Virus record (IMG/VR): IMGVR_UViG_3300025277_000014
Direction: 5' to 3' (one strand)
From: an uncultured virus (IMG/VR IMGVR_UViG_3300025277_000014)
Lineage: Duplodnaviria; Heunggongvirae; Uroviricota; Caudoviricetes
DNA length: 64,000 bases
The translations under genes were made by a program, and so were the position numbers. The notes under the pieces were generated by a model. It did no database searches. It worked only from the letters and a program-made list of their open reading frames with translations, and was not told the DNA's origin. Every line of letters begins with the position of its first letter. Position 1 is the stretch's first letter. Below are positions 8,502-50,366 of the stretch, piece by piece.

Positions 8502-10946
8502 TTAGTTATCAAAACGGACATTTTTCTGAACATCCACTCTTCTTGGACTTTTTTTACTCTTTTCAATCTCTTTTTGCTTAGTTAAGTTAACATTAGCCCG
8601 TAATTGAGCAATATCTTCCTGCGATTGTATCTTGTCTTGTGTTAATCTAGCATCTTGATCCAATTTATCCTGATCGATACCTATTTTAGCCTCATCGGCG
8701 CGAGTTTTTCGATCAATGTCCTGTTCACGAAGATTAATTTCTTGTTGTTTAAGGTCTATGAGTGGATCTTCTCCTAATACTTCCATCATTTCTTGTTCTT
8801 CTGTTACCATTTCCTCAATCATTGAAGCAATCTTCTCGGCTATCTGTTGTTCCATTGCTTCCTGGAACTGAATTTGCAGTTCTTGAGGTAATTGACCACC
8901 ATATTGTTGGGCTTGCTCTTGAATTGCTTGTGCATTTTCTTCTTCCACTTCCGCTCTAGCCTGTAAGCCCACATGTTCAACAATATGACCTTGTAAAATT
9001 GACATTACTTGAGGATTATTTTTAACTAAAATAGAAGACATGAACGCACGATGTGCATCAATATGAGCTAATTGGTTTTGTTGTCTAAATGCCAAAAGAG
9101 GCTCTCCTTTTAAGGAAGCTGCATTTTCTACTGCTGGATCTTTTGGTTGAGGCGGTTCAGGAACAGGTAAAATAGTATCAATGTCCTTTACTCCTAGTGC
9201 CTGATACATACGATGATAGGCTTCATACATATTATGAGCCTGAGGATCGGCTTGTGCTAATTGCAACTGTGTCTGTGCCAATGTCACACGCTGGGCCATG
9301 GAAAAAATATTTGGATCTGAAACAGGAATAATATCTATTTCATCACTAAAATCTTCTGCCTTTAAACTTGGAACCGCATCTTTTCCAACTTCATAGGGAT
9401 ACATTGGAGGAAGGGATTCTGCAAATATTTTTGCTAATAATTTAAATTCAATTTTTTGTGCATAATGTAGGCGCTTATGAATAGCTGACATAATACGAGC
9501 ACCTCGTTCCATGAGGGCCATTGTAGTTCCGACAGGTGCATTGGATGCAACACTGTCCCCGATCTTTTGATCAGCAACAGAAGCAAATCGTGTTCCCGCT
9601 TCTACAACGAAGCCTAATAAAGCAAATAAGGTTTGGCTTGGTTCTTTATAAGGTAAAGGTAGCAACCCTTGGCGAAGATCGCCCGAAGGGGCGTCTACAT
9701 CCCTGAATTCTCCTGGTTGGAGTGGATTGTCATCGTCTTTAATGCGCAGTCCTCGAGCTTTAAAACCCGCTGGGAGATTGGACAGCGTACCTGCATCGAT
9801 AAGTTGTCTAAGAGCTGACGTTGCGGTTCTTGATAAACCCCCGAGCATGTGGATAAGACCAAAACCGTAAAAGCTAAAGCCAGGTAAGAACTTATAATGA
9901 ACAAAATACTGTTTCTTTTTCTTCTTGGGATCTTCTTCATTGTAATTTCGGTAAATAGAAAGAACCTGTGCAGATCCCTCATCTAAGGTGACAATGTAAG
10001 GAACTTTAATTCCGTCTTCACTATCTATGCCTTCAATGTTTAAATCAACATGCATTTCCAATAATTGATAATCCTCTTTTTGATAGGATTTTTTCATTCC
10101 TGAAATCTGATCTTCTTTCTCCTGAACTCCTGTTTCCGTGGCGGATACCATGAGATCCACATCGCGGTACAGTCCCGCTACTTGTAATTTTCTTACTTCA
10201 TTTTTACTTCTACGAATAGTGTGAGTAACACGTTCGCATGACGGCAAGTCCGTTGCTAAGTAAGGAACATATAAATCATCTGAGGAAATAAATTTTGATA
10301 CAGCGCGTTCCAGTCCTTCATCATAATAGACTTTTTTAAATGCCGATCCTGACAAAGGTAAATAAAATAATAATGAATCCAGATCAGGATCATATTCTTC
10401 CATAACATGGGAAATTTGATAATTCATATAGTCCTTCACCCGTTGAGCCTGATCCTCTTTTTGAGTGGTAATGTGTCCTAGAATTTGTGTATTAACCGGT
10501 CCTCCTGGTGGCAATAATTCTTTATAGGCTTGCGCTTGGAATTGTGTAATGGCTTCAGACAGCATAGGGTGCGTGACACTGCTTGCTCCCGCAAAAGGCA
10601 TTGTTCGTTCCTGATATTTAAATCCTAAAAGATCCAGTCCCTTTTTGTAGGTGTCTTCCCAATCCTGTCGTGACGCCTTGTCGTCCTCAAAAGCTTCCCG
10701 CAGCTCGTTGGATATTCTTCCCAATTGGGACTCTTCCAGAACTTCAGCCAGATTCATATCAAAACTGGTTTCAATAGGTCTTTCCTGTTCTCCCACAATA
10801 GCGCTTCCATCATCCAACAATTCTATGTCAGGTCGCGTTCCATCCTCTACTTGCATTTCCACCATTTGCTGTATCGCTTGTTCCTGTTCTTCAGGAAATC
10901 CTGGTGGTGGGTTGGGAGTAAATCCAATAGGTCTGTCAATCGCCAT
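8502..10946 (-). CDS. Portal protein
   Basis: 814 aa; P22-like portal features (GSAFKKVYYD, FYGFGLIH, LRQLIDAGTLSNLP); coiled-coil C-terminus. Confidence 0.88.
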   Translation of the reverse strand: MAIDRPIGFTPNPPPGFPEEQEQAIQQMVEMQVEDGTRPDIELLDDGSAIVGEQERPIETSFDMNLAEVLEESQLGRISNELREAFEDDKASRQDWEDTYKKGLDLLGFKYQERTMPFAGASSVTHPMLSEAITQFQAQAYKELLPPGGPVNTQILGHITTQKEDQAQRVKDYMNYQISHVMEEYDPDLDSLLFYLPLSGSAFKKVYYDEGLERAVSKFISSDDLYVPYLATDLPSCERVTHTIRRSKNEVRKLQVAGLYRDVDLMVSATETGVQEKEDQISGMKKSYQKEDYQLLEMHVDLNIEGIDSEDGIKVPYIVTLDEGSAQVLSIYRNYNEEDPKKKKKQYFVHYKFLPGFSFYGFGLIHMLGGLSRTATSALRQLIDAGTLSNLPAGFKARGLRIKDDDNPLQPGEFRDVDAPSGDLRQGLLPLPYKEPSQTLFALLGFVVEAGTRFASVADQKIGDSVASNAPVGTTMALMERGARIMSAIHKRLHYAQKIEFKLLAKIFAESLPPMYPYEVGKDAVPSLKAEDFSDEIDIIPVSDPNIFSMAQRVTLAQTQLQLAQADPQAHNMYEAYHRMYQALGVKDIDTILPVPEPPQPKDPAVENAASLKGEPLLAFRQQNQLAHIDAHRAFMSSILVKNNPQVMSILQGHIVEHVGLQARAEVEEENAQAIQEQAQQYGGQLPQELQIQFQEAMEQQIAEKIASMIEEMVTEEQEMMEVLGEDPLIDLKQQEINLREQDIDRKTRADEAKIGIDQDKLDQDARLTQDKIQSQEDIAQLRANVNLTKQKEIEKSKKSPRRVDVQKNVRFDN

Positions 10947-14101: not shown

Positions 14102-15740
14102 TATTATATCCTATCACTTCTTCAATCGAAGCGAAACCCCCATCTGCGTATTCAAATAATTGTTTAGCTATGTCTGGAGGTAACTCTCCACCAGCGGCAT
14201 CAATGAAAGGTTGGTACATCTGACCGACTTCTTCCGCTGTTTTTTCTAGTGATTTTCCAGCGCTAGGCAGATTCTTCTCATATACAATGAAATCAGTTTC
14301 AATGAGTTTTTTAGTAGTATCATCTAATTGCAAATAATCTATCAAGCGTACATTAGAGGCTGTATTGTCCCCTGTCTTGACTACAACGTGAGGCATTCCA
14401 ATTCCAAAATCTGTGTTTGGATTTGTTTTTTTAAAATTATTAACAATAGTTTGTATGTCCTGTTTTATATCCAGTGCTTCTCTGTACTTTTTATTTATTA
14501 CTAAGTTAATCATTTTTTCATTAAGTTTAAAAACCTCGTCTTCCATAGCACTTTTATTTTTCACTGCGGCGTTCACTGGTGTCATACCAGGTGCGAGTGT
14601 TTCCCCCTTATGGGATCCTTTTATAATCAGTCGTAAATTAGGTTTCTGATTTGTTCCACCAAAACGAATAGGTGTAATATGATCAATATCAAACCCTCCT
14701 GCTACATTTTTCTTAATAGGCTCTAAAAAATCACTTATTATAGGATCACGGTATATGGAAGATTTAGCGGAATTCCATGTTCCATCAAGATCCAGTAATT
14801 GGGTTTTTGCGTGCTTTAAGGCCAATCCCGTTGTCCTGTCCCCTATGGCAGTTTGTTCCCAAGCAGCTTTATTGGATTGTATGCCTCCTCTGGTTATATC
14901 TTTTTGTACACCACTTGCACCATAGCGCAGGGTGGTGGGAAGATGCTCTAGTTTTATATTGCTTCCTTGAAAGTCAAGCATTAGTTGCGCCAAATCTCTA
15001 TCAGTCTGATATTTATTACTGCCTCCCGTCCCCTTAAAGGTACCGGGAAATATTTGTTTATATTCATTTGCAAATGCTCTACTAAACTCCTGGTCACTCC
15101 ATTTATAATTTTCTGGTTGTAAAGCTTTGGTATTTTCCAAAATTTCAAGAATCTTTCTTTTTGTGTGTAGGGAAGGTATTTTCATTACATACCCCGTATC
15201 TGGATCTATTCGTTCGGGCGTCAACGCCTTTATAATTTCTTTATTATCTTGAGTTGTACTTTTAACTTTAAACTCTTGTGAAAGTATACCGCTCTGAGGT
15301 TGAGTTTTAATCCAGTCCTTGTATTTTATGCCAGCAGCATTTTCTACGCTCTTCCAATTATGACCAACATAACCGAGCTCATTGGCCACCGCTTCTTTTG
15401 TTTTTTGACCGGAAGCTATTAACTCAAACTGTTCCAGTAAATGTTTTTGTTTATCTTCAACACTTAAAGCGTGCCAGGGTTCTCTTTTCTTTGGATCAAC
15501 CTTGGCTTTGGCTCTTTGATACTTTTCTTGTGCAGGTGTCTTAATGATTTTTTCTTCAAAGATATCTACAATATCTTCCGTAGCGGGTTTTGTTTCAACC
15601 TTGGTTTTCGCCGGTAATTTTTCCACAGTGGAAGGCTTTTTTTTAAATCCTTTAATTAAATCTATTAAAGCATCCAGGCCATGTTTTGCAACCGGAGCAA
15701 CGGCTTCAACATATTTTAGTAAGGGGTATGGGTTTCCCAT
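14091..15740 (-). CDS. Putative internal protein with an HNH nuclease motif
   Basis: DIDHITPIRFGGTNQKPNLRLI matches HNH DH-x-x-P-x3-GG-x6-NL pattern; YADGG near C-terminus. Confidence 0.65.
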   Translation of the reverse strand: MGNPYPLLKYVEAVAPVAKHGLDALIDLIKGFKKKPSTVEKLPAKTKVETKPATEDIVDIFEEKIIKTPAQEKYQRAKAKVDPKKREPWHALSVEDKQKHLLEQFELIASGQKTKEAVANELGYVGHNWKSVENAAGIKYKDWIKTQPQSGILSQEFKVKSTTQDNKEIIKALTPERIDPDTGYVMKIPSLHTKRKILEILENTKALQPENYKWSDQEFSRAFANEYKQIFPGTFKGTGGSNKYQTDRDLAQLMLDFQGSNIKLEHLPTTLRYGASGVQKDITRGGIQSNKAAWEQTAIGDRTTGLALKHAKTQLLDLDGTWNSAKSSIYRDPIISDFLEPIKKNVAGGFDIDHITPIRFGGTNQKPNLRLIIKGSHKGETLAPGMTPVNAAVKNKSAMEDEVFKLNEKMINLVINKKYREALDIKQDIQTIVNNFKKTNPNTDFGIGMPHVVVKTGDNTASNVRLIDYLQLDDTTKKLIETDFIVYEKNLPSAGKSLEKTAEEVGQMYQPFIDAAGGELPPDIAKQLFEYADGGFASIEEVIGYNNGG

Positions 15741-17182
15741 TAGTAATACTGTCTTGGTTCGATATACATCGGCTCATCCTTGTAGTCGGATTCGAGTTGA
15801 ACAAAATTTCCCTGACGGAAGCGCAGGAGAGCCTGCGTGGTTGAATCCACTAAATCATCATGCTCACCATAAGGGAAAGCGGCGCATTCTTCAATCACTT
15901 CCTCCGCCCACCTCTCGTCCGGACACCATATGTGCCCCGCCTCGAAAAGGGGAGCGACCGAGTTGACGCGGACATGCTTGTCCTGTCCCTTGCTCGGCGT
16001 ATAGGTCACAACGGGTATGCCCACCTGGCGCAGCTCGTGCGTCAATGGCAGTCCGCTGGCCTTGGCCTCAATCAGAATTGTTTCGGGTTCCCAGTACTTG
16101 TACTGTTCCAGCGCGATCCTTTTCAGTTCGGGAAAATCCCACCTTCCCTTTCGCATCGCCACCAGGATCAGGTGAGGCGGTCCGTGCTCCACGGGACGGA
16201 AAACACCCCACGTGGTAATGGCACTAAAGTCCGCCGTTTCCTTTTTCGAATAGGCTGTATCCAGGCTCTGGATGACATGCACCAAATCGGGAATCTTCTC
16301 CCTTGTCCACATCTTCCACCATTCCCGCTTGATGATTGATCCTTCCTCACTCGTCGGAGCCTGCTGCCACTGGGCTTGCCACTTCTGCTCGGACAGGGAC
16401 GCTTTCACGCCTTCCAGTTCCTTCAGATTCCAGTACTCAGGCCACATCGGCTTGTCATTAAGGATGGCCGGAAACTCCACAATCTCCCACTGATCCGCCT
16501 TCGGCTCGCTCTGGGCTTTGAGAAGCATTCCCGTCAAATCCTTCATGCTCCATCTCGTCATGACAATAACGATGGCACCACCAGGCTGAAGCCTCTGCCT
16601 CGGTCCTGAGGTATACCATTCCCATGCGTTGTCCAAAGCTGTCTCAGAAAGGGCATCCTGCTCGGAGTGGGGATCATCAATGACCAGCAAATCGGCTCCA
16701 CGACCGGTGATCGCGCCCCCCGTTCCCGCAGCGAAGTACTCCCCGCCCTTGTTTGTCTCCCAACGGCCCGCGGCCTTGGAATCCTGTGATAAAGTCACAC
16801 CAGGGAAAACATCCTTAAAATCCTGTTGCTCAAAAAGATTACGCACTTTTCTACCAAATCGATAGGAAAGCTCTGCGGTATGGGTAGTTTGAATAATTTT
16901 TAATTTAGGGTTCAGCCCCATCATCCAACCAGGAAACAAATTAGAAGCAAACTCTGATTTGGTATGTCTAGGAGGCATATTAACAATTAAGCGTTTAATC
17001 TCTCCACGTGAAACAGCTTCAAGTTTTTTTGCAATAACACGATGATGTGAACCTACAATAAATTCAGGCCATACTTTTTTTACAAAAGTTAAGAAGGAGG
17101 AACGGGACTCCTTAGCCACTTTTAGTTGAAGATTCCTTAATTCATATTTTAATAAGTCAGTTGGAATTGTTTTTGAAATCAT
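15740..17182 (-). CDS. terL: Terminase large subunit
   Basis: NMPPRHTKS Walker A, LLVIDDP Walker B, SLDTAYS and HDDLVD RNase H-like nuclease motifs. Confidence 0.93.
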   Translation of the reverse strand: MISKTIPTDLLKYELRNLQLKVAKESRSSFLTFVKKVWPEFIVGSHHRVIAKKLEAVSRGEIKRLIVNMPPRHTKSEFASNLFPGWMMGLNPKLKIIQTTHTAELSYRFGRKVRNLFEQQDFKDVFPGVTLSQDSKAAGRWETNKGGEYFAAGTGGAITGRGADLLVIDDPHSEQDALSETALDNAWEWYTSGPRQRLQPGGAIVIVMTRWSMKDLTGMLLKAQSEPKADQWEIVEFPAILNDKPMWPEYWNLKELEGVKASLSEQKWQAQWQQAPTSEEGSIIKREWWKMWTREKIPDLVHVIQSLDTAYSKKETADFSAITTWGVFRPVEHGPPHLILVAMRKGRWDFPELKRIALEQYKYWEPETILIEAKASGLPLTHELRQVGIPVVTYTPSKGQDKHVRVNSVAPLFEAGHIWCPDERWAEEVIEECAAFPYGEHDDLVDSTTQALLRFRQGNFVQLESDYKDEPMYIEPRQYY

Positions 17183-17358
17183 AAAAAAGTTATAACATAA
17201 TCTCTGTTCGTGTAAAACTCTCCACTAAAGGGAAACTCTCGAGCGACCAGCTGCATTTAGGGGGTGTAGGGGTGTTAACATACTGTATTTGGTGTTTGAA
17301 GTCGATCGTAAGTACCTAAAGCTCTGGAGGAAGCAGGCGGAGTTGCCTGTTCAGGCAT

Positions 17359-17384
17359 AAAAAAAGGGCGGATAAACCGCCCTT
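17359..17384 (-). terminator. Intrinsic terminator
   Basis: AAGGGCGG/CCGCCCTT stem with a T-run on the minus strand. Confidence 0.8.
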
Positions 17385-17405
17385 CTGCCAGTCCCCTAGA
17401 GGAAA

Positions 17406-17573
17406 CTATTCAGTATCGTGTACAAATTCATAGGACTTGATCCAACAAATAGATAAAATTATCAACACTACATCATTAAGTAGTGTGTATTTCATAAAGT
17501 TATAGTCGGTTAATAGGAAAGCGATCATTAAAGAGCAAACCATTAACATAATCATTTTAATATGTTTATTCAT
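17406..17573 (-). CDS. 55-aa two-helix membrane protein
   Basis: MNKHIKMIMLMVCSLMIAFLLTDYNFMKYTLLNDVVLIILSICWIK...; ATGA overlap with upstream stop. Confidence 0.6.
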   Translation of the reverse strand: MNKHIKMIMLMVCSLMIAFLLTDYNFMKYTLLNDVVLIILSICWIKSYEFVHDTE

Positions 17574-17851
17574 CTGTTTTGAAACTCCCTCATCTTAGCT
17601 TGACCATTAGCAATTAAATTCTCTGCCCAAGCCTTAACCTCTGCACTTGCATTGGGGTTAAGTATTAATTCCTCAACCTCTGACTCTAACCATTTATAGA
17701 GTGCTTTCCAATTCAAATTAATAGTAATACTTTCTTGTTGGTTATCAACATCAGTATTATTAGGATTAGTTGGTTGAGTGTTTTGTCTTAAACCGATTGT
17801 CTGATTTAAAACTGTTAGTCTATTTTGTAAGTCATTATTATTATCTGGCAT
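17570..17851 (-). CDS. Early hypothetical protein
   Basis: Own promoter and GAGG RBS. Confidence 0.75.
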   Translation of the reverse strand: MPDNNNDLQNRLTVLNQTIGLRQNTQPTNPNNTDVDNQQESITINLNWKALYKWLESEVEELILNPNASAEVKAWAENLIANGQAKMREFQNR

Positions 17852-17875
17852 TTATGACCTCTCTTTCTATCTACC

Positions 17876-17904
17876 TTATTAATCCCATTACATTTGATAG
17901 TCAA
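17876..17904 (-). promoter_or_regulatory. Sigma70-type early promoter
   Basis: TTGACT-N17-TAATAA with TGGGA in the spacer. Confidence 0.65.
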
Positions 17905-17959
17905 ACTTTAATTTATCTTTTTTCTTTTTATTTTTTTACTTGACAAAAGTCAGAACGCC

Positions 17960-18176
17960 GTGCGGGGAACTTTACTATACTATAGTACTCCAAGTTTCTT
18001 GGGTGACAATGGAATGGAGGTCAGCTGCTGCCAGCTGCGCGGGAACACTACTACTATAAAGCAAGGAATTCCCTGGTTTCAATGGAATGGAGGAACACAA
18101 TCTTCCACACCCCCTGGGGAAGCCTTAACTATACTAATACCCACTTCCAAGTTTCTTGATCGACAATGCAATGGAC
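17960..18176. repeat. Dual-motif repeat block 1 (3 units)
   Basis: ACTATACTA-like at 17974, 18047, 18128; CAATG(G/C)AATGGA at 18007, 18080, 18164. Confidence 0.9.
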
Positions 18177-18178
18177 AT

Positions 18179-18210
18179 AAAAAAAGGGCAAAGTTTCCTT
18201 TGCCCTTTTT
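18179..18210 (-). terminator. Intrinsic terminator (possibly bidirectional)
   Basis: AAAAAGGGCAAAG/CTTTGCCCTTTTT inverted repeat. Confidence 0.85.
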
Positions 18211-18225
18211 CACCAGAAAATAATA

Positions 18226-18639
18226 TTAAACAGCTAATTGAAAATCAGATAATTCTCTAGTTGAGTAACGACCAGAATCTATAGCCACTCGCTTGTCATC
18301 TATTGCCATAGCTTGAATAGTTTTATATTGTGTTGGAACTTTGCATTTGTGGTATTCCAACTCGCCAAGTTTTTCTTTTACTAAAGCAGTATCAATCTTT
18401 GCACCAATCTTTTGAGAGATATGTAAAGAGTAATCTTTGCCATGTAAGAGGTTGGCGTTTTCGCTGATACCCATATCAATTAATAATTGACGATTTACTT
18501 TTAAGAAGTCAGCGATGATCTTTTGCATTATTAACGCTCTGCCATAAGCGTCTGCAATTTGCATTTTAGCTTTCTTGCTCATATTCTTACCTTGATGAGC
18601 TTTTTCTAAAACACTTAATATATTAACAGCTTTTGTCAT
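18226..18639 (-). CDS. Early hypothetical protein
   Basis: 137 aa with own promoter, AAGGA RBS and terminator. Confidence 0.78.
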   Translation of the reverse strand: MTKAVNILSVLEKAHQGKNMSKKAKMQIADAYGRALIMQKIIADFLKVNRQLLIDMGISENANLLHGKDYSLHISQKIGAKIDTALVKEKLGELEYHKCKVPTQYKTIQAMAIDDKRVAIDSGRYSTRELSDFQLAV

Positions 18640-18674
18640 TTGTTATCCTTTCGACTTTCTAGTTAATTATATCC

Positions 18675-18703
18675 CTTATATATTATCCCACTTCATTTGT
18701 CAA
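18675..18703 (-). promoter_or_regulatory. Sigma70-type early promoter
   Basis: TTGACA-N17-TATAAG, AT-rich UP-like tract, TGGGA in spacer. Confidence 0.8.
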
Positions 18704-18739
18704 TAAAATAATTTATTTATTTTTCCAACCGACCTTCCA

Positions 18740-19038
18740 CTCACCTGCTGGGCTTCGGTATACTATACTAGACGAGGAAATTCACCGAGTTCCAATGGAA
18801 TGGAGGTAGCTGCGCCCGGGGAAGCACAGTCATCACGCAAATAAGGGCGGAAATCCACGAATGTAGCTGATGGAGATGTTCTCTTCATGCCTGGTCGGCG
18901 AAGACTCACCATACTAAAGGGCAGAAAACAACGAAACGTGGTCAATGGAATGGAGCGACTGAAGTGCCGGTTCCCGTGGGCCCATCCTAAACTATACTAT
19001 AGACAGGGGAAATTCGCCCGATGTACAATGGAATGGAG
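18740..19038. repeat. Dual-motif repeat block 2 (4 units, one degenerate)
   Basis: AC(T/C)ATACTA at 18762, 18908, 18991; CAATGGAATGGAG at 18793, 18943, 19026; degenerate ATGGAG at 18870. Confidence 0.9.
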
Positions 19039-19048
19039 ATATTCTCTT

Positions 19049-19087
19049 TATGCGTGATCCCGTAAATACTTTTCGGGATCACGCATA
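19049..19087. terminator. Perfect 14-bp hairpin, probable terminator
   Basis: TATGCGTGATCCCG / CGGGATCACGCATA with 11-nt loop, downstream of 19108 ORF. Confidence 0.6.
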
Positions 19088-19107
19088 GGAAATAGTTTAC
19101 TATGCAG

Positions 19108-19248
19108 CTACGGCGACCAGGGAATCGTAGTCCAGTCCACCAGGTTCATGAGCCCAGCAGCCAGCAGGATGGTAAACGCCAGGACCGGCTGCGGGAAGCA
19201 GAGAAATGCGCCAATGTAAACAATTAAAAGAATGTAGAAGTAATGCAA
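19108..19248 (-). CDS. 46-aa membrane protein (TTG start)
   Basis: Hydrophobic HYFYILLIVYIGAFLCFPQPVLAFTILLAAGL; GGAGG RBS. Confidence 0.6.
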   Translation of the reverse strand: MHYFYILLIVYIGAFLCFPQPVLAFTILLAAGLMNLVDWTTIPWSP

Positions 19249-19249
19249 A

Positions 19250-19582
19250 TTAAGTCGCCTCCACCATATCTTCCAGATGACTCCACGCTTCAGCATGCTG
19301 CTGCGGGCTCAGGGTCACCTTAGCACCGTCGTACCAGTCCAGGTACCAGTATTCAATGCGATGGACACTCTTATCCGGATTAATGTAGATCCTGAACTCA
19401 TCGCCAGGGCCTCCCCAGGAGAGCTGCCAACGCCAGTAGCCTTCAAGTTGGTCGTCCCAGGTCTTCGGCTCCACGTAATCAAAGCAAAGCCCCTCCACTG
19501 TCTTGAGATCTTTCAACCTGTCTTCAAATTCTCCTTGAACCAGCTGCGCGCAGCTATGTAAACGTTTTGTACTTGTGTTCAT
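19250..19582 (-). CDS. Early hypothetical protein (WQLSWGGP motif)
   Basis: YWRWQLSWGGPGDEFRIY motif; own promoter. Confidence 0.8.
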   Translation of the reverse strand: MNTSTKRLHSCAQLVQGEFEDRLKDLKTVEGLCFDYVEPKTWDDQLEGYWRWQLSWGGPGDEFRIYINPDKSVHRIEYWYLDWYDGAKVTLSPQQHAEAWSHLEDMVEAT

Positions 19583-19699
19583 TCTTTTCCTTCCTGTTTT
19601 AATGCGTCCTTTTCACGGTATATTAAACGGTTTCTAGAAGCGGACGCAGTCTCCTGGTCTTCAGGCCTAGGCTATTAGTGCTCACCTGATCCTGTTACT

Positions 19700-19728
19700 T
19701 ATATAGTCCCACTTTATCCGTTAGTCAA
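19700..19728 (-). promoter_or_regulatory. Sigma70-type early promoter
   Basis: TTGACT-N11-TGGGAC-TATATA. Confidence 0.75.
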
Positions 19729-19754
19729 GGGTAAAACCAAAAGAACTTCCGTCA

Positions 19755-19835
19755 CCCCAGTCAGCTGCTGCGTGCGTTGAGAGCTCCTTAACTATACTAT
19801 ACTAGCCACCGAAGGCGAGCAATGGACAATGGACA
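19755..19835. repeat. Dual-motif repeat block 3 (1 unit)
   Basis: CAGCTGCTG at 19762, ACTATACTATACTA at 19791, CAATGGACAATGGA at 19820. Confidence 0.85.
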
Positions 19836-19837
19836 AT

Positions 19838-19865
19838 AAAAAAGGCGAGGATTGACCTCGCCTTT
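19838..19865 (-). terminator. Intrinsic terminator
   Basis: AAAGGCGAGG/CCTCGCCTTT stem with a T-run on the minus strand. Confidence 0.8.
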
Positions 19866-19892
19866 AAGGAGTTAATAGTGAAAAAATATTTT

Positions 19893-20111
19893 TTAGTTTT
19901 CGATATAGCCTCCCCCATTTTGAATTTCAGCTTCCCGATTTATTCGGTTGGCTCTGTCTGCTCCCTCTTTCATGGGAGGAACAACAGAATTATAATGCCC
20001 TAGAATCTTTTCCAGCGTTGCATTATTTCTATTGAGAGCTTCGGTAATGCCTTTTAATGTGGCACATACCATGTCCATATTTTCATCAGATAATACCATA
20101 TCTTTCTCCAT
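19893..20111 (-). CDS. Early hypothetical protein
   Basis: 72 aa between promoter and terminator. Confidence 0.7.
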   Translation of the reverse strand: MEKDMVLSDENMDMVCATLKGITEALNRNNATLEKILGHYNSVVPPMKEGADRANRINREAEIQNGGGYIEN

Positions 20112-20129
20112 TTCTGATTATTAGATTTC

Positions 20130-20158
20130 TTTATACTCCCATCTTATCCCATAGTCAA
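20130..20158 (-). promoter_or_regulatory. Sigma70-type early promoter
   Basis: TTGACT-N11-TGGGAG-TATAAA with A-tract upstream. Confidence 0.8.
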
Positions 20159-20179
20159 GTTTTATTTTTTTTATTTTTC

Positions 20180-20716
20180 CTGACTGAAGTGCCAGTCCTG
20201 CACAGGGACCATCCCTGACTATACTACAGTAGAGTGGCGAGAAACTCGGGCAATGGACAATGGAGATCCCTGACCAGCTGCGCGCTGCTGCGTCCGGATC
20301 GTCGCTCATCACCCTTGAAGATGGCGGAAATCAGCCAATGCAAATTCAACAACCACCTGCTTCCCCGGGAGGGACTGGGCTGGGGAGCTGCACCTAAATA
20401 ACAAATAAGTGGCGGAAAACGGCGACAATGCGTAATGGAAATGGACACTTCCCGTGCGGCATCCTGCCTGGTACGCCGGACTCACCTTATACTACCGCAG
20501 TTCGTGGCTGTTTTTCGCCAATGGACAATGGAGAACATCTCCTGACACAGGATGCGCCCGGAAGACCGTCCCATTTTATTACTGACTAGGACTGGGCTGG
20601 GGGAATGGGCAATGCAGAATGGAGGAAGAGGGACGCCAGCTGCTCCCTGGGCCAGGGAACCAGTGGGAATGACCAACTGGGCGTGGCCAATGCGCCTTCG
20701 CTCGCAATGGAATGGA
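20180..20716. repeat. Dual-motif repeat block 4 (about 6 units, last two inside nuclease ORF)
   Basis: CAATG-type boxes at 20251, 20336, 20426, 20519, 20610, 20705; TATACTA boxes at 20218 and 20487. Confidence 0.85.
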
Positions 20717-20999
20717 CAACGGCTCCTGGAAAGACACAGAGTAAGCTCTGAGAGAGGGTCTGGGCCATGATAAAACTTCTGCCACCACGCAAACTATACT
20801 TATAGTTCCACATTATTTGGTGAGGCCGTAAATTAATCTTCTTACTTGTAATTACTTTTAGTTCCACCCAGAAAGGAATGCTGTCTTTTATTCCATGAAC
20901 ATCAGGAACACCAGGTGTAGCCCAATTCTCAAAACGAGTCCAAAATATATCTGGCATATTTTCTTTCATCAAATGCCAAAGTTTAGACTCTGGTTTCAT
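20586..20999 (-). CDS. PD-(D/E)XK nuclease (VRR-NUC/Holliday-junction-resolvase-like)
   Basis: E...TPGVPD...FWVELK...LRPHQ catalytic pattern; start revised to MKPESKLW (TAATG coupling). Confidence 0.82.
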   Translation of the reverse strand: MKPESKLWHLMKENMPDIFWTRFENWATPGVPDVHGIKDSIPFWVELKVITSKKINLRPHQIMWNYKYSLRGGRSFIMAQTLSQSLLCVFPGAVVHSIASEGALATPSWSFPLVPWPREQLASLFLHSALPIPPAQS

Positions 21000-21157
21000 T
21001 AAAAAATTAAAACTAAAATTACAATAATGACAAAAAGTATTTTCCAGCTGCCCCACATCAAAGAAGCAATAATCAACGTCCACCACTCCCTGTCAACATC
21101 AGCAGTTATTTTATCTTTGCAATCCCCTAAAGGAATTGAATCTCTTTTATCTACCAT
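20999..21157 (-). CDS. 52-aa membrane protein
   Basis: GGAGG RBS; hydrophobic C-terminal half. Confidence 0.6.
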   Translation of the reverse strand: MVDKRDSIPLGDCKDKITADVDREWWTLIIASLMWGSWKILFVIIVILVLIF

Positions 21158-21341
21158 GCGCATACCTCCTCTTGTCAATATTCTTGGACAACTCATATAG
21201 TTTATCCGTCCACATAGCACAACCAACTACATCACCTACTAATCCTCTGGCTTTTATCATTTTCTTTAAACGCTTTACACGCCACCAGAATAACACTTCC
21301 TCCTTATCCATAGGGGAAATAATTTTACCATTGGTACTCAT
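21147..21341 (-). CDS. Hypothetical protein
   Basis: Coupled ORF in operon. Confidence 0.6.
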   Translation of the reverse strand: MSTNGKIISPMDKEEVLFWWRVKRLKKMIKARGLVGDVVGCAMWTDKLYELSKNIDKRRYAHGR

Positions 21342-21556
21342 TTACTATTTGCTCCAACAATTTCCTGTGCTTTGGTTAAAGCGTCATTCCAGCCCTTATT
21401 GTATTCACTTGTTTTTTGATCTGCTACCATTTTATCGAGTTCGTCTAGCACATTTTGATATTCCTCCTCTGGTGTATAATCAGCGTGTGCCCAATTAACC
21501 CGAGTATTGGTTTCAAGCATCTCTCTTATTTTTTCAATTATTTCTTTGTCCGTCAT
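21338..21556 (-). CDS. Hypothetical protein
   Basis: GGGAG RBS; first ORF after the 21711 promoter. Confidence 0.7.
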   Translation of the reverse strand: MTDKEIIEKIREMLETNTRVNWAHADYTPEEEYQNVLDELDKMVADQKTSEYNKGWNDALTKAQEIVGANSK

Positions 21557-21710
21557 GACTTTCTCCCTTTTTAATGATGCCTGGCAACAGACTTTGGTCT
21601 AGGCCACCCTTGCAGTTTTATCCTAGCTTCATCTAGCTGGGTGCAAAAAAAGTACCAGGCACCGTGTTTACTGTCTTTTTTTTATATGTGCTACAGCTAC
21701 ACATGATTAG

Positions 21711-21739
21711 TATATACTCCCACTTTATTAGATAGTCAA
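21711..21739 (-). promoter_or_regulatory. Sigma70-type early promoter overlapping terS stop
   Basis: TTGACT-N11-TGGGAG-TATATA. Confidence 0.75.
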
Positions 21740-22284
21740 GACTTTTTTTCAACTTTTTTCATTTCCTTTAAAACCTCGAAATCAGCTGCAATACTGTACT
21801 GTTCTTTAAGCTGTTGCAACTTAGCCTCAACATCATCCCGGCTCATTGAATCAATCGTTCCTGTAAGAATTTCTTTTTTGTCAACATACAATCCTGCGAT
21901 CTGACCTCTCCGAGTCTCTGCCGTCACCGCAGCATTCCAATTCCCTGACGTACTGGCCTGATCCCTAATTCTTGCTAATGTAGAAAGTGATCTTTCCTGT
22001 GTGCATTTGTACCTTTCAACAATGGCCCTTCGCTCATCTTCAATGGCTTTTGCAACCAATGGAAACTTCTGAGGATTCTGCAGCTCCGATGCACGAACCA
22101 CGGCAGATCCTTTTGCGTATCCAGCCTCAATGGCACAATGCATGGCAGTTTTTAATCCCTCAGAATGGACTAACAATATAATAAATTTTCTTTGTTTCCC
22201 TGTAATCTTGGGATCAAACAAAGAATCCGACAAACCAGAGGGAATAGTCACTTCTTTTGTTTCAGTTTGTTTCTGTTGTTCCAT
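21736..22284 (-). CDS. terS: Terminase small subunit
   Basis: ITGKQRKF...AIEAGYA...ASEL HTH pattern; AAVTAETRRGQIAGLYVDKKEI C-terminal region. Confidence 0.8.
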   Translation of the reverse strand: MEQQKQTETKEVTIPSGLSDSLFDPKITGKQRKFIILLVHSEGLKTAMHCAIEAGYAKGSAVVRASELQNPQKFPLVAKAIEDERRAIVERYKCTQERSLSTLARIRDQASTSGNWNAAVTAETRRGQIAGLYVDKKEILTGTIDSMSRDDVEAKLQQLKEQYSIAADFEVLKEMKKVEKKS

Positions 22285-22369
22285 AAAAGCTTATTTATAT
22301 AGGTGTTTTTTACCAGACATTTGCATAAAATGCAAAAAATCAAGCTTTCTGTTTTCGGTTTGCTAAAAA

Positions 22370-22460
22370 GGATACTTTTGGATACCTCTAATAATTGTTA
22401 AAAGTAACCTTTTTTTGGTAGCTGATAAGGGATGACACCTGGATACCTCAGATACCTCTA
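22370..22460. repeat. Cluster of GATACCT-like direct repeats
   Basis: GGATACT 22370, GGATACCTCTA 22380, GACACCT 22434, GGATACCTCA 22441, GATACCTCTA 22451; AT-rich flank. Confidence 0.75.
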
Positions 22461-22521
22461 TTTCTGGTAAAAAATAAAAAAATATTTTTCTCTCAGTAAA
22501 AACAGCTATAGGAAACCCCTA

Positions 22522-22722
22522 TTATGAAAAGAATACGGGATTTTCCCTTACATTCTGTAATAATCTATCTAAAACTTCTCTGCCTTCAGTAAGAATTATT
22601 TCCCACTCATTTTTTGTATAGGCGCGGTCGTGGATAGGGTTGTAAAATTTAATGGATATGGTGCCACACTTAGTGCAGCTAAATATTTTTCTTACCGGGC
22701 TGTTTGGTAGGGATGTTGACAT
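22522..22722 (-). CDS. Small CxxC hypothetical protein
   Basis: CTKC motif; coupled ORF. Confidence 0.6.
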   Translation of the reverse strand: MSTSLPNSPVRKIFSCTKCGTISIKFYNPIHDRAYTKNEWEIILTEGREVLDRLLQNVRENPVFFS

Positions 22723-22906
22723 TTAATCTTCTCACCTTGTGTAATGGAAATGGAATAACATTGTCAGGCAAATCTTTCCTGAAATACACGGTATCCATAA
22801 GTTTAAGAGATTCTTCTCGTTCGCGGTCCGAGAGCCGCGTAGCAAGCATCGTGTCCAACAAATCCCGCTGGGCTATGCTTTCCAAAATTTCCTTGTTACT
22901 TTTCAT
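22679..22906 (-). CDS. Hypothetical protein
   Basis: GGAGG RBS; DNVIPFP motif. Confidence 0.65.
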   Translation of the reverse strand: MKSNKEILESIAQRDLLDTMLATRLSDREREESLKLMDTVYFRKDLPDNVIPFPLHKVRRLNVNIPTKQPGKKNI

Positions 22907-23014
22907 AACGCCTCCTCTAGATACTGCCCCCCGTAAGATTCTTCATCTGAACAGGGGCAGTAAATTAGAAATGAACGGCGTTAGTATAGCCTAAATCCTA
23001 TTTTATTTCAATGG

Positions 23015-23323
23015 CTACATTCCATAGGGGAGACGCCGACGGCATGAATCACAAAACCGATCAAAACGGGAATGGATCTTGAACTCCTTGAGACAGATGT
23101 TGCAGTCCCTTTTCCCGATGACAGGCCCTTTGTAGACTCGGGCCATGTTGTTTTTTCTCGTTGTTTTGGGAGCAGTTCCCCACTTGACGCGAAGCCTGTG
23201 AATCTTTCCAATCACCGCATTCCTGGACATGGTCAGTTTATCGGCGATCTCTCTGGATGAGAGTCCCGTGTCCATCAGGTTTTCCAGGTCTTTTGTTTTC
23301 TCCTCTGACCAGTTCTCTCTCAT
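23015..23323 (-). CDS. gcrA: GcrA-like regulator (HTH plus Zn finger)
   Basis: WSEEKT..L..L..GLSSREIADKL-MSRNAVIGKIHRL matches the GcrA N-terminal HTH; C-terminal CxxC...FCxxC. Confidence 0.78.
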   Translation of the reverse strand: MRENWSEEKTKDLENLMDTGLSSREIADKLTMSRNAVIGKIHRLRVKWGTAPKTTRKNNMARVYKGPVIGKRDCNICLKEFKIHSRFDRFCDSCRRRLPYGM

Positions 23324-25802: not shown

Positions 25803-26354
25803 TTAGTGAACCCAACTGATAATGGAATGACGATCCCCTTGATAAATGGGAGTGATCGAATGAGGAAAGCAAGGATTACTGGGAAACACTACCGCACTAT
25901 AAGCTAACCTGGAAATAACATGTTCTCCCCCAAAGAAACTAAAGTTTCCTCCCTGATAGTCATCATTAAGAAGGAGTGAACAACTTAGAACTCTAGGCTT
26001 CATGAACTGAGAATGATCAACATGCTCTTTATATTCATGAGATTCCTCTGCCTTGTAGAGAAGATGATCATATCCACTGTCCTCCATTTTTAATCCATCA
26101 AAGAATTTAAGTTCCTGAATGTATGATTTAAAGAGGTCCTTAAAAATGGTAGAAATTTTCTCCTTGAATTTTGGTTCAAGCTCTTTGACGTAACAACGGC
26201 GTGCCTCATTAGTCTTTCCCCCTCCCGCAGTAGCGGGAAAGAATTTTAAATCAGGTTGCGTTATGATCTCGTTAGCGAGCTCAGGGGAAATAATATTACG
26301 ATATTCTTTAACATAGTAGGGTAGCAACAGCTTTAAATGTTTTTCACTAGTCAT
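25803..26354 (-). CDS. 2OG-Fe(II) oxygenase (prolyl-4-hydroxylase-like)
   Basis: HVD...LNDDYQGG...H...R-x-S facial triad; paralog of 55033..55569. Confidence 0.85.
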   Translation of the reverse strand: MTSEKHLKLLLPYYVKEYRNIISPELANEIITQPDLKFFPATAGGGKTNEARRCYVKELEPKFKEKISTIFKDLFKSYIQELKFFDGLKMEDSGYDHLLYKAEESHEYKEHVDHSQFMKPRVLSCSLLLNDDYQGGNFSFFGGEHVISRLAYSAVVFPSNPCFPHSITPIYQGDRHSIISWVH

Positions 26355-26503
26355 TTGTTAATTTTTCCTTCTGGTCCATTTAAAAAATCTATCAGTTCCT
26401 TGCTAGTATATTGACTGTCCTTTTTATTTCTTTTATCCTTTACTATGCGCTTTTGATATTTTGGTGTGCGCAACTCTTTCGCGACGGGGTTTCGTTTTTT
26501 CAT
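26351..26503 (-). CDS. 50-aa basic protein (MKKRNPVAKELRTPKYQKRIVKDK...)
   Basis: ATGA overlaps at both ends, linking polA to the oxygenase. Confidence 0.7.
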   Translation of the reverse strand: MKKRNPVAKELRTPKYQKRIVKDKRNKKDSQYTSKELIDFLNGPEGKINK

Positions 26504-28377
26504 TTTCCAGCATCCCCCCAGCTTTTCCCTATTTCTATGTCAACCCTGCTCGGTACTAATAGTTCAACAGATGTTTCCATGATCTCTTTTATTCTTTCCT
26601 GGTCTTTTTTACTACTGATGGAAAAATCTAGTTCATCGTGGACTTGGATATGCGCCATATAGCCCTCTTTAGAGAGCTCCAGCATAGCTTTTTTTGTTTG
26701 ATCCGCAGCTGATCCTTGAATTAATCTATTGAGAGCCTTATAAGTCCAGGCGCGTTTAATCATATGTTCGCCATATTCGTCTTTCGCTTGTTGTAGCGGA
26801 AGAGCTTTTGAGCCCCATTCATTAGTTGGTTCCCATAAATCAAAACGGCATCGTCTTCCCAGAAGTGTGCGTAAGTATCCTTTTTTTCCAGCCTTATACA
26901 TTGTGTCCTTCATCAATTGCTTAACAAAAGGAACCCTTCCATGATATGTGGCCAGTATTTCTTCAGCGTCTTCTAAATTAAGGCCTAATTGTGACATCAG
27001 TTTTCCTTTTCCCATACCATAAAACAATCCTAAATTAATTGATTTAGCCTGTTTTCGTGGAATGTTAGCAATGTCAGCGACGAGTTGATGAAAATCCGTT
27101 GTGTCATCTTCTTGATAAGCATCCAAGAATTTTGATGCTCCGGAGAATTCTTGCAGGGCTGCATAGTGGACCACGAGCCGTGGTTCCTGTTGCGAGTAGT
27201 CAAATATACCCCACTCACAATCCTGTTCTGGTACAAAAATGGAACGAATTAATGGACCAAGTATGGCATTGCGAGCGGGGATCTGCTGTAAGTTCGGATT
27301 CGAGTAGGAAAACCGTCCAGTGACGGTACCACCCTGATCCGATCTCATTTGGTGTATTTCTGCGTGAATCCGTGCTTGGTGCGAATGATTGGAGATACTT
27401 CCAATGAAGGCTGTTCGCGCCTTGTTGATCTCCCTAGCTTCCACCACCATCTTTGCCAAAGGGCTTTCATGACTTGATAAAAAGTTTTTATCGAACTTTG
27501 GTTTGCCCGTTGGAGTGCTGTCGTAAGGGATACCTTGGGTTTTAAAAGCTTTCGCCACCGATGCTGCTGCCCATATTTCCACACTCTGACCTGTGAGCCT
27601 CTTAATTGAAGCCAGAATCTTATTCTCTTTAGATAATAAATCATTTTTTATCCTTTCCGCTTTGTCAAGATCGACCCGTACTCCTTTTTGTTTCATTTTG
27701 AACAAAACGGGAAAGAGGTCTATCTCGAGTTCAAAAATACTTAATAAGTTCTGTGATATGATTTCTTTTTTAAGGTGATGCCATAGGCGTAGCGTTACAG
27801 CCGCGTCCTGTTCTGCGTACTCGCCTACGTGTGAGGCGGGAAGCTTCCACAACTCCGATTTCGGATTGATGCCCCACATTTTTGCCGCTTCGTAGAGTTG
27901 GGTTTCCGATTTCGATTCCTGTAAATAGTCCTTTCCTAATGAATTTAGATCGAAACGAAACCTGTTCTCATCTACCAATGGTGCGGCAATCAAAGTGTCG
28001 ATTATTTTTCCTCGGATGTCAATACCTAAAGTGGATAACCAGCCTACATCATAAAAAGCATTGTGAAAGACGTAGTTCATGTATTCGTAAGAACATTGTT
28101 TTTTCAACCATTTAGTCACAATTTTTTTATCCATGTTGGGCGGTGTGTCGTGGGCTATGGGAAAATATCCACACCAGCCATCCACCGCAACGGCAATCCC
28201 CACCACTTCTCCGTGTTTGGACACCCATCCTGGACCTAGTGTTTTTAGTCCTGGGTCACGTGTTTCCAAGTCAATAGCTATTTCCGTATACTCAGAGAGA
28301 TCGGGAAAGTGATCGGGCATTACCCACTCGCTGGGCATTACATGAACTTTAGGAAACCAGTTTGGCTGTTCTTTCAT
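26500..28377 (-). CDS. polA: DNA polymerase family A with 3'-5' exonuclease
   Basis: DLET ExoI, HNAFYD, YAEQD; TGRFS..NPNLQQIP, DYSQQEPR (motif A), RKQAKSINLGLFYG (motif B), QVHDE (motif C). Confidence 0.95.
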   Translation of the reverse strand: MKEQPNWFPKVHVMPSEWVMPDHFPDLSEYTEIAIDLETRDPGLKTLGPGWVSKHGEVVGIAVAVDGWCGYFPIAHDTPPNMDKKIVTKWLKKQCSYEYMNYVFHNAFYDVGWLSTLGIDIRGKIIDTLIAAPLVDENRFRFDLNSLGKDYLQESKSETQLYEAAKMWGINPKSELWKLPASHVGEYAEQDAAVTLRLWHHLKKEIISQNLLSIFELEIDLFPVLFKMKQKGVRVDLDKAERIKNDLLSKENKILASIKRLTGQSVEIWAAASVAKAFKTQGIPYDSTPTGKPKFDKNFLSSHESPLAKMVVEAREINKARTAFIGSISNHSHQARIHAEIHQMRSDQGGTVTGRFSYSNPNLQQIPARNAILGPLIRSIFVPEQDCEWGIFDYSQQEPRLVVHYAALQEFSGASKFLDAYQEDDTTDFHQLVADIANIPRKQAKSINLGLFYGMGKGKLMSQLGLNLEDAEEILATYHGRVPFVKQLMKDTMYKAGKKGYLRTLLGRRCRFDLWEPTNEWGSKALPLQQAKDEYGEHMIKRAWTYKALNRLIQGSAADQTKKAMLELSKEGYMAHIQVHDELDFSISSKKDQERIKEIMETSVELLVPSRVDIEIGKSWGDAGK

Positions 28378-48335: not shown

Positions 48336-48351
48336 CTTATTATACACTATT

Positions 48352-50199: not shown

Positions 50200-50366
50200 T
50201 GGCTAAAATTACCATTACACGTTTACCTAACGCGACACCCGAGTATGAAAGTGGTCAGTTTGATCAAATGATCCGTCTTTTGGAGCAAATTATCTTGGTG
50301 CTTAATACTTCCTATGCTCAGGACATAGAAGAACAAAGTAGCGGAAGGAGTTGGTTCCTTGGCTGA
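50199..50366 (+). CDS. 55-aa putative virion protein (MAKITITRLPNATPEY...)
   Basis: TAATG coupling, GGAG RBS; translated by hand. Confidence 0.75.
   Translation: MAKITITRLPNATPEYESGQFDQMIRLLEQIILVLNTSYAQDIEEQSSGRSWFLG

Follow-up and report, generated by a model that had tools for sequence, protein, structure and literature searches.

Oriented two-box units between terS and terL

The stretch of DNA analysed here, referred to as the window, comprises 64,000 nucleotides (64 kb) from an uncultured virus (IMG/VR record IMGVR_UViG_3300025277_000014). Every gene from position 1 to about 35 kb lies on the minus strand, hereafter the gene strand, and between the genes for the small and large terminase (terS and terL) four blocks of short repeated units run along the plus strand, hereafter the array strand. 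Box A (consensus TTACTATACTA) lies upstream of box B in a typical unit; read on the gene strand, a unit consists of C' (GCAGCTG), B' (CTCCATTCCATTG), about 20 variable nucleotides (nt) and A' (TAGTATAGTAA). A preliminary description, made from the sequence alone, had proposed an oriented, bipartite array, and such an array is indeed present. A regular expression for box B, CAATG[G/C]N0-4ATGGA, applied to both strands of the whole window, gave 13 matches on the plus strand and none on the minus strand, with starts at 18007, 18080, 18164, 18793, 18943, 19026, 19354, 19820, 20251, 20426, 20519, 20610 and 20705. Twelve of these lie within the four blocks (18007–20716); the remaining one, at 19354, falls within the gene at 19250–19582, outside any array. 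As for the approximately 14 units originally listed, twelve of the box B sites match this strict pattern, and the copies at 18866 and 20336 are only degenerate. The blocks, and two unit-like stretches that continue from block 4 into an open reading frame (ORF), are as follows.

17947–18176, plus strand: array block 1, three units; box A at 17974–17985, 18047–18059 (degenerate) and 18128–18136; box B at 18007–18019, 18080–18092 and 18164–18175
18736–19040, plus strand: array block 2, four units; box A at 18759–18771, 18908–18916 and 18991–19002; box B at 18793–18805, 18866–18878 (degenerate), 18943–18955 and 19026–19038
19741–19835, plus strand: array block 3, one unit; box A at 19791–19805, box B at 19820–19833, then 4 nt to the terminator of the upstream gene
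20186–20585, plus strand: non-coding part of array block 4; box A at 20218–20229 and 20486–20494; box B at 20251–20264, 20336–20347 (degenerate), 20426–20445 and 20519–20532
20574–20716, plus strand: two unit-like stretches in the resolvase ORF; box A variant at 20574–20589 with the stop codon inside it; box B at 20610–20623, read as L-H-S-A-L, and at 20705–20716, read as V-H-S-I

Both boxes occur more often than expected. A stricter box B pattern gave five matches against 0.41 expected, a number reached in none of 100 shuffles, and box A (ACTATACTA, at most one mismatch) gave 27 matches against 9.8 expected, again reached in none of 100 shuffles; exact copies of box A start on the plus strand at 17974, 18128, 18762, 18991, 19791, 19796 and 20218. 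Where box A is clear, the distance from its start to that of box B is 24–36 nt (29–36 bp in the preliminary description). Neighbouring units are spaced 73–95 nt apart inside the window, and 73–102 nt apart in 30 of 33 distinct neighbour pairs. The G+C-rich segment with CAGCTG noted earlier is a genuine third motif: counted over this segment in 82 units, there are 20 copies of CAGCTG (0.9 expected), 45 of GCTGC (4.3 expected), 21 of GCAGC and 15 of CTCCTG (1.0 expected). The array blocks have 52–55% G+C, compared with 35–38% for their surroundings. Box B itself carries two ANGGA/GGAG-like cores. Resemblance to Chi-like sites was considered and set aside, as AATGGA and TCCATT outside the arrays lack an array-like strand bias (22 versus 34, plus strand).

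The blocks separate a gene end or terminator from the promoter of the next minus-strand gene, as first described; blocks 1–3 are non-coding and, like the whole array, lie between terS and terL, and block 4 extends into ORF 20586–20999. Five promoter-like sites of one type, TTGAC(T/A)-17/18-TAxAAx, lie on the gene strand between 21739 and about 17360, with TTGAC starts at 21739, 20158, 19728, 18703 and 17904. Four of these five early-type promoters have a block upstream, and the four cassette promoters additionally have A/T-rich upstream tracts. On the gene strand, each block opens with B' at 0–12 nt from a gene end or terminator and closes at the A/T-rich tract preceding the next strong promoter of sigma-70 type. 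The transcription units interleaved with the blocks are the following.

Start at 21739: TTGACT-17-TATATA promoter-like site ahead of small ORFs and the resolvase gene
19893–20111, minus strand: cassette gene p72; promoter TTGACT 20158–20153, terminator 19841–19865
19108–19582, minus strand: cassette genes p110 (19250–19582) and p62 (19108–19296); promoter TTGACT 19728–19723, hairpin with an 18-bp stem at 19049–19087
18226–18639, minus strand: cassette gene p137; promoter TTGACA 18703–18698, terminator 18181–18210
17406–17851, minus strand: last cassette, p93 (17570–17851) and p55 (17406–17573); promoter TTGACT 17904–17899, terminator-like hairpins at 17465–17486 and about 17359–17385

Terminators beside box B were counted by eye, the hairpin scan being too noisy. 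Box B lies 3–4 nt from the A-run of a gene-strand terminator in nine of 11 distinct cases and 6 nt away in the other two. All 11 have a run of 5–8 A serving the gene strand, and four have at least five T in the 8 nt past the stem on the array strand; a role as plus-strand terminator is therefore possible in some relatives, though not general. In the window, block 1 ends at a two-way terminator. No terminator separates the resolvase gene from block 4, which is therefore expected to be part of the gene-strand transcript. The 5' leader of p110 gave no structure signal (z −0.72).

Outside the boxes, the window units are only 24–32% identical to one another, compared with 93% identity in CAATGG and 96% in TATACTA; as a pattern, this shows the boxes to be under selection. 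Orthologous block 4 of the window and of a close relative (L003, TerL 96% identical) is 91% identical along its length. As paralogous units are so unlike and the orthologous block so alike, the copies appear to be old and independently evolving, with only the boxes kept. Box B shows turnover within this constraint: at least two ATGGA copies are retained and their places change (window CAATGCGTAATGGAAATGGA versus L003 CAATGGACAATGGAAATGCA). The number of units changes fast, with three strict box B sites in the window against one in L003 for each of blocks 1 and 2; a looser pattern adds one more in each of these blocks.

Population variation was examined in DNA contigs from four marine metagenome runs. 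A joint from 19731 to 20175, found in contigs of two of the four runs, removes 19732–20174, and with it the p72 promoter core, gene and terminator and the single unit of block 3; the unit thus travels with the cassette upstream of it. The deletion breakpoints lie in the promoter repeats and not in the boxes. A back-joint from 20590 to 20514 (77 nt) is located at the end of the resolvase gene. The p72 cassette is polymorphic for presence and absence in marine metagenomes, with further promoter-repeat joints at 19741 and 20158.

The resolvase gene and the distribution of the arrays

The ORF that block 4 enters had been described as a PD-(D/E)XK nuclease, an assignment borne out by its catalytic motif and by structural similarity.

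20586–20999, minus strand: Hjc/RecU-like PD-(D/E)XK Holliday-junction resolvase, 137 amino acids (aa), with invariant E24, P32, D33, E46, K48 and Q61

E24, P32-D33, E46-x-K48 and Q61 are invariant in 19 homologues and form an E...PD...ExK catalytic motif. The structural model (predicted local distance difference test, pLDDT, 87.8) gave Hjc, RecU and VRR-NUC as its top Foldseek matches, with E from 2.4e-5; the match to Pfam Hjc reached only E 0.28. On the evidence of the model, the protein is predicted to be an ordinary Hjc/RecU-like Holliday-junction resolvase. Its gene is present across the whole phage group, including array-less relatives, so that the dedicated nuclease-plus-array module first envisaged is not supported: the link to the nuclease is one of origin and position. 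Array-less, simpler relatives have the resolvase 250–420 bp upstream of terL; for this reason, about 3.4 kb of cassettes and arrays appear to have been inserted between resolvase and terL in the array clade.

The array had been thought to start inside the nuclease gene. The C-terminal part of the resolvase is conserved and, in the model, folded: helix 118–127 reads REQLASLFLH, the CAGCTG of the 20705 unit provides its Q-L codons, and the stop codon falls in the box A variant. As they encode conserved, folded parts of the protein, the last two "units" are real coding sequence; the array gives the impression of beginning there since its units share their motif layout with the 3' end of the gene. 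Helix codons, L-H-S codons and stop region follow in the same order in the units and in the last ~80 nt of the gene. Read in the resolvase frame, non-coding units give AQLAAAD-LHSI... and GPREPALQS-LHSI..., compared with PREQLASLF-LHSA... in the gene. The resolvase of subclade 2 (see below) ends ...K-L-H-stop within B', and another gene, of 59 aa and unrelated to it, also runs into a B' with S-I-L-H-S. This similarity and motif order suggest that the units derive, as old copies, from the final ~80 nt of the resolvase gene. In the coding copy, box A reads TTATTACTGACTAG and differs from the version common to the copies.

A coding role for the units themselves was rejected: CAGCTG is in frame in seven of 13 cases, which gives no signal, and unit spacing shows no 3-nt periodicity (n = 33). 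Many units end, in the L-H-S frame, at a stop in A', which is uninformative because A' carries stops in two of three frames. The idea of silent cassettes used for gene conversion of the resolvase tail has little in its favour, there being no frame conservation and no evidence of mosaics.

Arrays were then sought among relatives. A two-box pattern search of IMG/VR gave 33 loci, of which 23, on 18 contigs, have at least three box B on one strand and at most one on the opposite strand; homologous phages thus do carry the array at this locus. Of 80 TerL-related loci, 61 were examined; left out were eight starting within terL, ten with about 0.3–1.6 kb upstream and one (L084) with 3.6 kb. Upstream of terL, these 61 loci hold 101 box B on the array strand and three on the other. 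Arrays of at least two box B occur in 18 of the 61, all of which have a TerL at least 70% identical to that of the window, and in the relatives examined they are always located between the small nuclease gene and terL. The cassette genes p72, p62 and p55 were found only in the nearest relatives.

Two subclades can be distinguished. Subclade 1 has a TerS at least 73% identical to that of the window, box B of the CAATGGAATGGAG type and a clear box A; subclade 2 has box B TAATGGAGAATGGAGA, a TerS about 40% identical and a nuclease 33–40% identical to those of the window. HTVC027P, which has no array, is as distant from the window in TerS and nuclease as is subclade 2, which keeps box B. Box B type therefore tracks neither TerS nor nuclease identity, a co-variation that the preliminary description had suggested checking.

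Boxes A and B are absent from the more distant relatives examined. Other G+C-rich repeats occur in the same region of distant relatives (L034, L035, L036, L106 and L112): HTVC027P (L036) has (CAAGCY)n abutting TTGACA, 023Pt_psg01 has GGGTGGGCCC with (CGAGC)n, and L112 has four tandem GCGCGTACCAGG. The HTVC027P resolvase ORF likewise runs into its repeat. The record lacks an annotation for this resolvase homologue (2710–3078, plus strand). It does annotate gp32 on the other strand (2993–3241), which overlaps the 3' part of the homologue and is for the most part (CAAGCY)n repeat. Between the resolvase homologue and terL of HTVC027P, positions 4247–4367 (minus strand) match Rfam RF02976 (Flavobacterium-1 RNA) over its full length, scoring 90.2 bits where the gathering score is 58.9 (E 3.5e-16), inside a G+C-rich unannotated stretch of about 450 nt behind a TTGACA promoter; the window has no such match.

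One scan of species-representative bacterial genomes revealed no array, its two matches both being unrelated repeats in contigs of metagenome-assembled genomes. The available parts of PMC9599517 and of a 2019 bioRxiv preprint contain no account of repeats in this phage group, "repeat" in PMC9599517 referring to curli fibres, and the available parts of PMC12753301, PMC9599517 and the same preprint contain none of promoters or intergenic regions (supplements lay outside this search). No published description of the array was found in the literature searched.

The window TerL is 60–63% identical to those of the Pelagibacter phages HTVC027P and HTVC023P and of 023Pt_psg01 and DSL-LC04, on which basis the window is assigned to an HTVC023P-type marine podophage. 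The region was matched by DNA (67–95% word-identical) in 20 marine runs from 18 studies; none of the 24 runs listed for the region is RNA, and megablast gave no near-identical phage record. According to the available part of PMC12753301, HTVC027P has no polymerase of its own, all its early genes are of unknown function, and gp33, gp34 and gp30 of the corresponding region are expressed early to mid infection. Family searches placed the following genes elsewhere in the window.

8502–10946, minus strand: portal
15740–17182, minus strand: large terminase (terL)
21736–22284, minus strand: small terminase (terS)
26500–28377: family A DNA polymerase

The same searches also gave a primase, helicases, a C5 methyltransferase, GcrA-like and Ros/MucR-like proteins and many 2-oxoglutarate (2OG)-Fe(II) oxygenases. 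About nine paralogous 2OG-Fe(II) oxygenase/JmjC-type genes lie mostly in one plus-strand run (46427–56315), with another at 25803–26354 (minus strand). The GcrA-like and Ros/MucR-like genes (23015–23323 and 28349–29029, both minus strand) encode protein types typical of Alphaproteobacteria. As Pelagibacterales lack MucR according to the available part of a review (PMC7710501), the host may lie outside SAR11, or the phage may supply its own copy of MucR. The middle of terL (15800–16800) has 53–57% G+C, compared with 34–38% for its ends and neighbours, a mosaic composition resembling that of p110 and the arrays.

Immediately upstream of terL (17183–17325) lie TTTACA (17216–17211), 16 nt, TATAAC (17194–17189), then TTTTTT and ATG; since the ATG follows without a Shine-Dalgarno sequence, the terL message looks leaderless. 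Further upstream are CCCCTACACCCCCTAAA (17275–17257) and CTTTAGGTACTTAC (17321–17308). These conserved non-coding elements ahead of terL are common to the window and to L038–L062, L041–L057, L064, L107 and L110, array-less relatives included. These elements could represent a late promoter or a packaging signal.

Possible functions of the units

We tentatively propose that the arrays are putative protein-binding DNA "punctuation", placed behind early gene ends and ahead of the next strong promoter. Each unit would have arisen as an old copy of the ~80-nt 3' end of the resolvase gene; the copies have drifted to random outside the boxes, with the boxes retained; and these would be bound, as double-stranded DNA, by a sequence-specific protein. 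Occupied boxes would separate tandem early transcription units of the host-takeover type, and the units could act as a polar roadblock or insulator against read-through polymerase and/or as a holding site near promoters. The single orientation (13 versus 0 in the window; 101 versus 3 among relatives), selection on the boxes, the gene-end/promoter layout, linkage to cassettes, the lack of RNA-structure and coding signals, the promoter-like spacing of hexamers on the gene strand and co-occurrence with p93 and a MucR-like protein are all consistent with this proposal. Orientation-dependent arrest of elongation is known from the repressor sites of mycobacteriophages (PMC9283540, available part).

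Candidate binders, as leads only, are the host RNA polymerase holoenzyme, p93 and the Ros/MucR-like zinc-finger protein. The holoenzyme is considered because A' resembles a −10 element and the TTG at the end of B' lies at about the −35 distance, and the zinc-finger protein because box A is TpA-rich; MucR proteins bridge DNA and bind AT-rich sites with TpA steps at intervals of dozens of nt (PMC5881533 and PMC11662661, available parts). The p93 family, helical proteins of 81–93 aa that start MP(D/N)NN and are always encoded by the last gene before terL, occurs in 43 array-clade loci (27 of subclade 1 and 16 of subclade 2) and in none of the other loci examined. p93 had no match in the phage collection and no usable Atlas match, and its model (pLDDT 57.8) is too poor to interpret. 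The Ros/MucR-like gene is found in the window lineage and in L131, whose array lies 6–7.5 kb downstream of it. It had no match among the HTVC023P-type phage records searched, which implies its absence from the four array-less isolates, and one complete array-less contig does not have the gene either. The contigs of subclade 2 stop within the polymerase gene or are fragments.

Several observations weigh against the punctuation proposal. The last cassette, p93/p55, is followed by terminators and no unit, so the arrays do not shield terL, and in the lineage of L110 and L115 small genes lie between resolvase and terL with no array at all. Box A is degenerate in subclade 2. Unit spacing shows no helical phasing at 10.5 bp (Rayleigh p ~0.11), and because the two ATGGA cores of box B lie at varying distances of 5–8 nt and the spacing from A to B varies by about 12 nt, single-stranded recognition would fit better than a rigid binder of double-stranded DNA. 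As to the candidate binders, the units are poor sigma-70 promoters, with −35 positions 4–6 mostly CCN and spacers of 13–25 nt; the co-occurrence of p93 and MucR with arrays represents one or two lineages and not independent events; and, as the phage is A+T-rich (41.7% G+C over the window), a MucR-type protein would meet TpA-rich sites everywhere.

A more far-reaching possibility, which we regard as rather unlikely, is that the most abundant group of marine phages has an undescribed cis-acting system of resolvase-derived, cassette-borne 3' "trailer" units, read by a clade-specific factor (p93, the MucR-like zinc finger or the resolvase), which would gate the transcription of host-takeover genes in a polar way or serve gene capture and exchange without a classical recombinase.

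Alternatively, though we consider this improbable as well, the arrays may be duplication-prone recombination modules with no other function, that is, by-products or substrates of cassette gain, loss and shuffling at a resolvase–terL hot spot, their boxes persisting as shared homology or through repeated copying from the coding copy. The likeness of the units to the resolvase 3' end, the mere 250–420 bp between resolvase and terL in array-less relatives, the unequal unit numbers of close relatives (three versus one in L003 for blocks 1 and 2), and the metagenomic cassette-plus-unit deletion and back-joint 20590 to 20514 are all as this explanation would have it, and shuffling of promoter–stem-loop (PeSL) cassettes is documented in T4-like phages (PMC2839356 and PMC4122927, available parts). 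Neutral copies, however, would decay evenly, yet the boxes alone are kept. Concerted evolution is not seen, units within one genome being unlike and the orthologous block 91% alike, and box A of the coding sequence (TTATTACTGACTAG) differs from that shared by the copies. Boxes of 10–16 nt are also short for homologous recombination, the deletion joint lies in promoter repeats instead of boxes, and no recombinase family was found among the 80 window ORFs scanned.

The −10-like character of A' raises the question of whether the units are themselves tandem weak host-polymerase sites or promoters on the gene strand, with the TTG of B' as −35 and the TAGTAT/TATAGT of A' as −10, which would restart or concentrate transcription past terminators and might also help reel in the DNA of a polymerase-less phage. 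We consider this quite unlikely. Box A is −10-like on both strands and retains the pattern xATAxT/TAxTAT; on the gene strand, a TAnnnT hexamer follows the TTG of B' at 16–18 nt in 38 of 82 units and at 15–19 nt in 47 of 82, and a promoter scan lists units 1 and 2 as sigma-70-like. The unit length of 73–102 nt is about one polymerase footprint, and in array-less relatives TAGTATAAAG precedes the start of terL by about 15 nt. HTVC027P, moreover, is without its own polymerase (PMC12753301, available part), and the intergenic repeats of halovirus HF2 bear promoters (PMC8707807, available part). Set against these points are the mismatched −35 positions 4–6 and the variable spacers described above, and the conservation of B' for at least 10 nt past the TTG, a feature not accounted for by sigma-70. 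Of the 70 units scored on the gene strand, 45 have a best score of only 7–8 of 12, and the maximum is 10.

A decidedly doubtful explanation is that the motifs act as RNA, either as unstructured protein-binding or base-pairing motifs in gene-strand read-through or 3'-trailer RNA (UCCAUU repeats), or as plus-strand AUGGA/GGAG RNAs that sponge an RNA-binding protein or 30S subunits. The variable core spacing of 5–8 nt is typical of single-strand recognition and box B carries two ANGGA/GGAG-like cores; block 4, behind a resolvase gene without terminator, should be transcribed on the gene strand, and block 1 in the window ends at a two-way terminator. Against this, no structure signal was obtained on either strand: whole-unit folding energies do not differ from those of shuffles (mean z −0.23 on the plus and −0.20 on the minus strand), parts of units gave z of −0.56 to −0.01, and Rfam returned no match at E up to 1 on either strand of 15000–23000; no tRNA or tmRNA was found either. 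Structured RNA was rejected on these grounds, hairpins seen by eye in mid-unit not being conserved. A plus-strand promoter would lack a −35 (best totals 6–9 of 12); with the structure and Rfam results, the small-RNA source once suggested gained no support. Blocks 1–3 sit behind gene-strand terminators, and a T stretch on the array strand accompanies only four of 11 terminators, compared with a gene-strand A run at all 11. CsrA is uncommon in Alphaproteobacteria.

That the arrays are polar packaging, genome-end or ejection sites (TerS sites, pac-like signals or arrays near terminal repeats as in T7) is very unlikely: the single orientation, the location between terS and terL and the breaking of many related contigs just upstream of terL would suit such a role, but box B is shared by subclades 1 and 2 despite a TerS identity of ~40% and absent from the equally distant HTVC027P, the units are spread over 2.8 kb among genes with their own promoters, and TerS, initially put forward as a reader of the sites, is an unlikely one because a different conserved non-coding stretch (CTAGGTACTTA ... 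CCCCCACCCCCCTAAA) adjoins terL in array-bearing and array-less relatives.

Whichever of these explanations applies, the arrays provide a concrete handle on early-gene control in very abundant marine phages without their own RNA polymerase, and their oriented, selected motifs around early cassettes a handle on the gain and loss of host-takeover genes. A regulatory repeat family born from the 3' end of a protein-coding gene would also be an instructive evolutionary case.

Comparison with known systems

Layouts with alternating conserved and variable segments were the first point of comparison, and the view that neither clustered regularly interspaced short palindromic repeats (CRISPR) nor tandem interspaced guide RNA (TIGR) arrays fit the present one has stood. 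CRISPR arrays consist of near-identical direct repeats of 21–48 nt separated by unique spacers of similar length, usually close to cas genes. Only boxes of 10–16 nt are conserved here, the units being otherwise 24–32% alike, and a Pfam search of the 80 window ORFs (a window short of the whole genome) gave no cas, Nop-domain or recombinase family, in agreement with the earlier statement on cas and Nop-domain genes; a CRISPR array was therefore rejected. In TIGR-Tas systems, the units measure ~36 nt and bear box C/D-like motifs, and the Tas protein has a Nop domain. The present arrays share with them the alternation of conserved and variable short segments and differ in unit spacing (73–102 nt), in the degeneracy of the copies and in having no Nop-domain match and no RNA structure signal, on which grounds this candidate too was discarded.

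The repeats of halovirus HF2 are likewise intergenic, tens of bp long, with AT-rich motifs, and carry promoters (PMC8707807, available part). They belong to an archaeal virus, however, and are single repeats directly upstream of genes, not copies of a gene end. The host-takeover module of SPO1 and the early regions of T5 and T7 resemble the present region in that small early genes follow one another, served by terminators and by strong promoters of the host type; to our knowledge, comparable arrays of bipartite units have not been described for them.

Integron attC sites and Vibrio cholerae repeats offer a formal likeness: same-orientation repeats of ~60–140 bp with conserved ends and a variable middle, at the 3' ends of cassettes, sometimes with the stop codon of the upstream ORF inside the repeat, and with ORF-less units in existence. 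In contrast, the window's 80 ORFs include no IntI-type tyrosine recombinase or other integrase, the units have no conserved attC-like hairpin (z −0.23 and −0.20), and the cassettes have their own promoters and terminators; an integron cassette array was accordingly rejected.

The stoperators of L5 and other cluster A mycobacteriophages are short, asymmetric repeated sites that lie in one orientation at gene ends and in gaps (PMC9283540, available part). A comparable orientation is seen here (13 versus 0 and 101 versus 3), with B' at 0–12 nt from gene ends or terminators. Stoperators are single sites of 13–14 bp, distributed genome-wide in temperate phages and bound by a known repressor, whereas the present units are bi- or tripartite, stand in tandem runs of one to six, and are confined to the early region of a probably lytic phage.

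PeSL cassettes of T4-like phages are small genes of unknown function, each equipped with a strong early promoter and a terminator; they cluster in a plastic region flanked by conserved genes, and their content varies between close relatives (PMC2839356 and PMC4122927, available parts). The present region has four TTGAC(T/A)-17/18-TAxAAx promoters and hairpin terminators at 18181–18210, 19841–19865 and 19049–19087, its joints lie in the promoter repeats (19731 to 20175), and its cassette content differs between relatives, as seen from the p72 joint in two of four runs and from p72, p62 and p55, confined to the nearest ones. PeSL elements, however, are the promoter and stem-loop themselves; here, an additional array of 73–102-nt units is interposed between terminator and promoter, and these units probably descend from the end of a coding gene.

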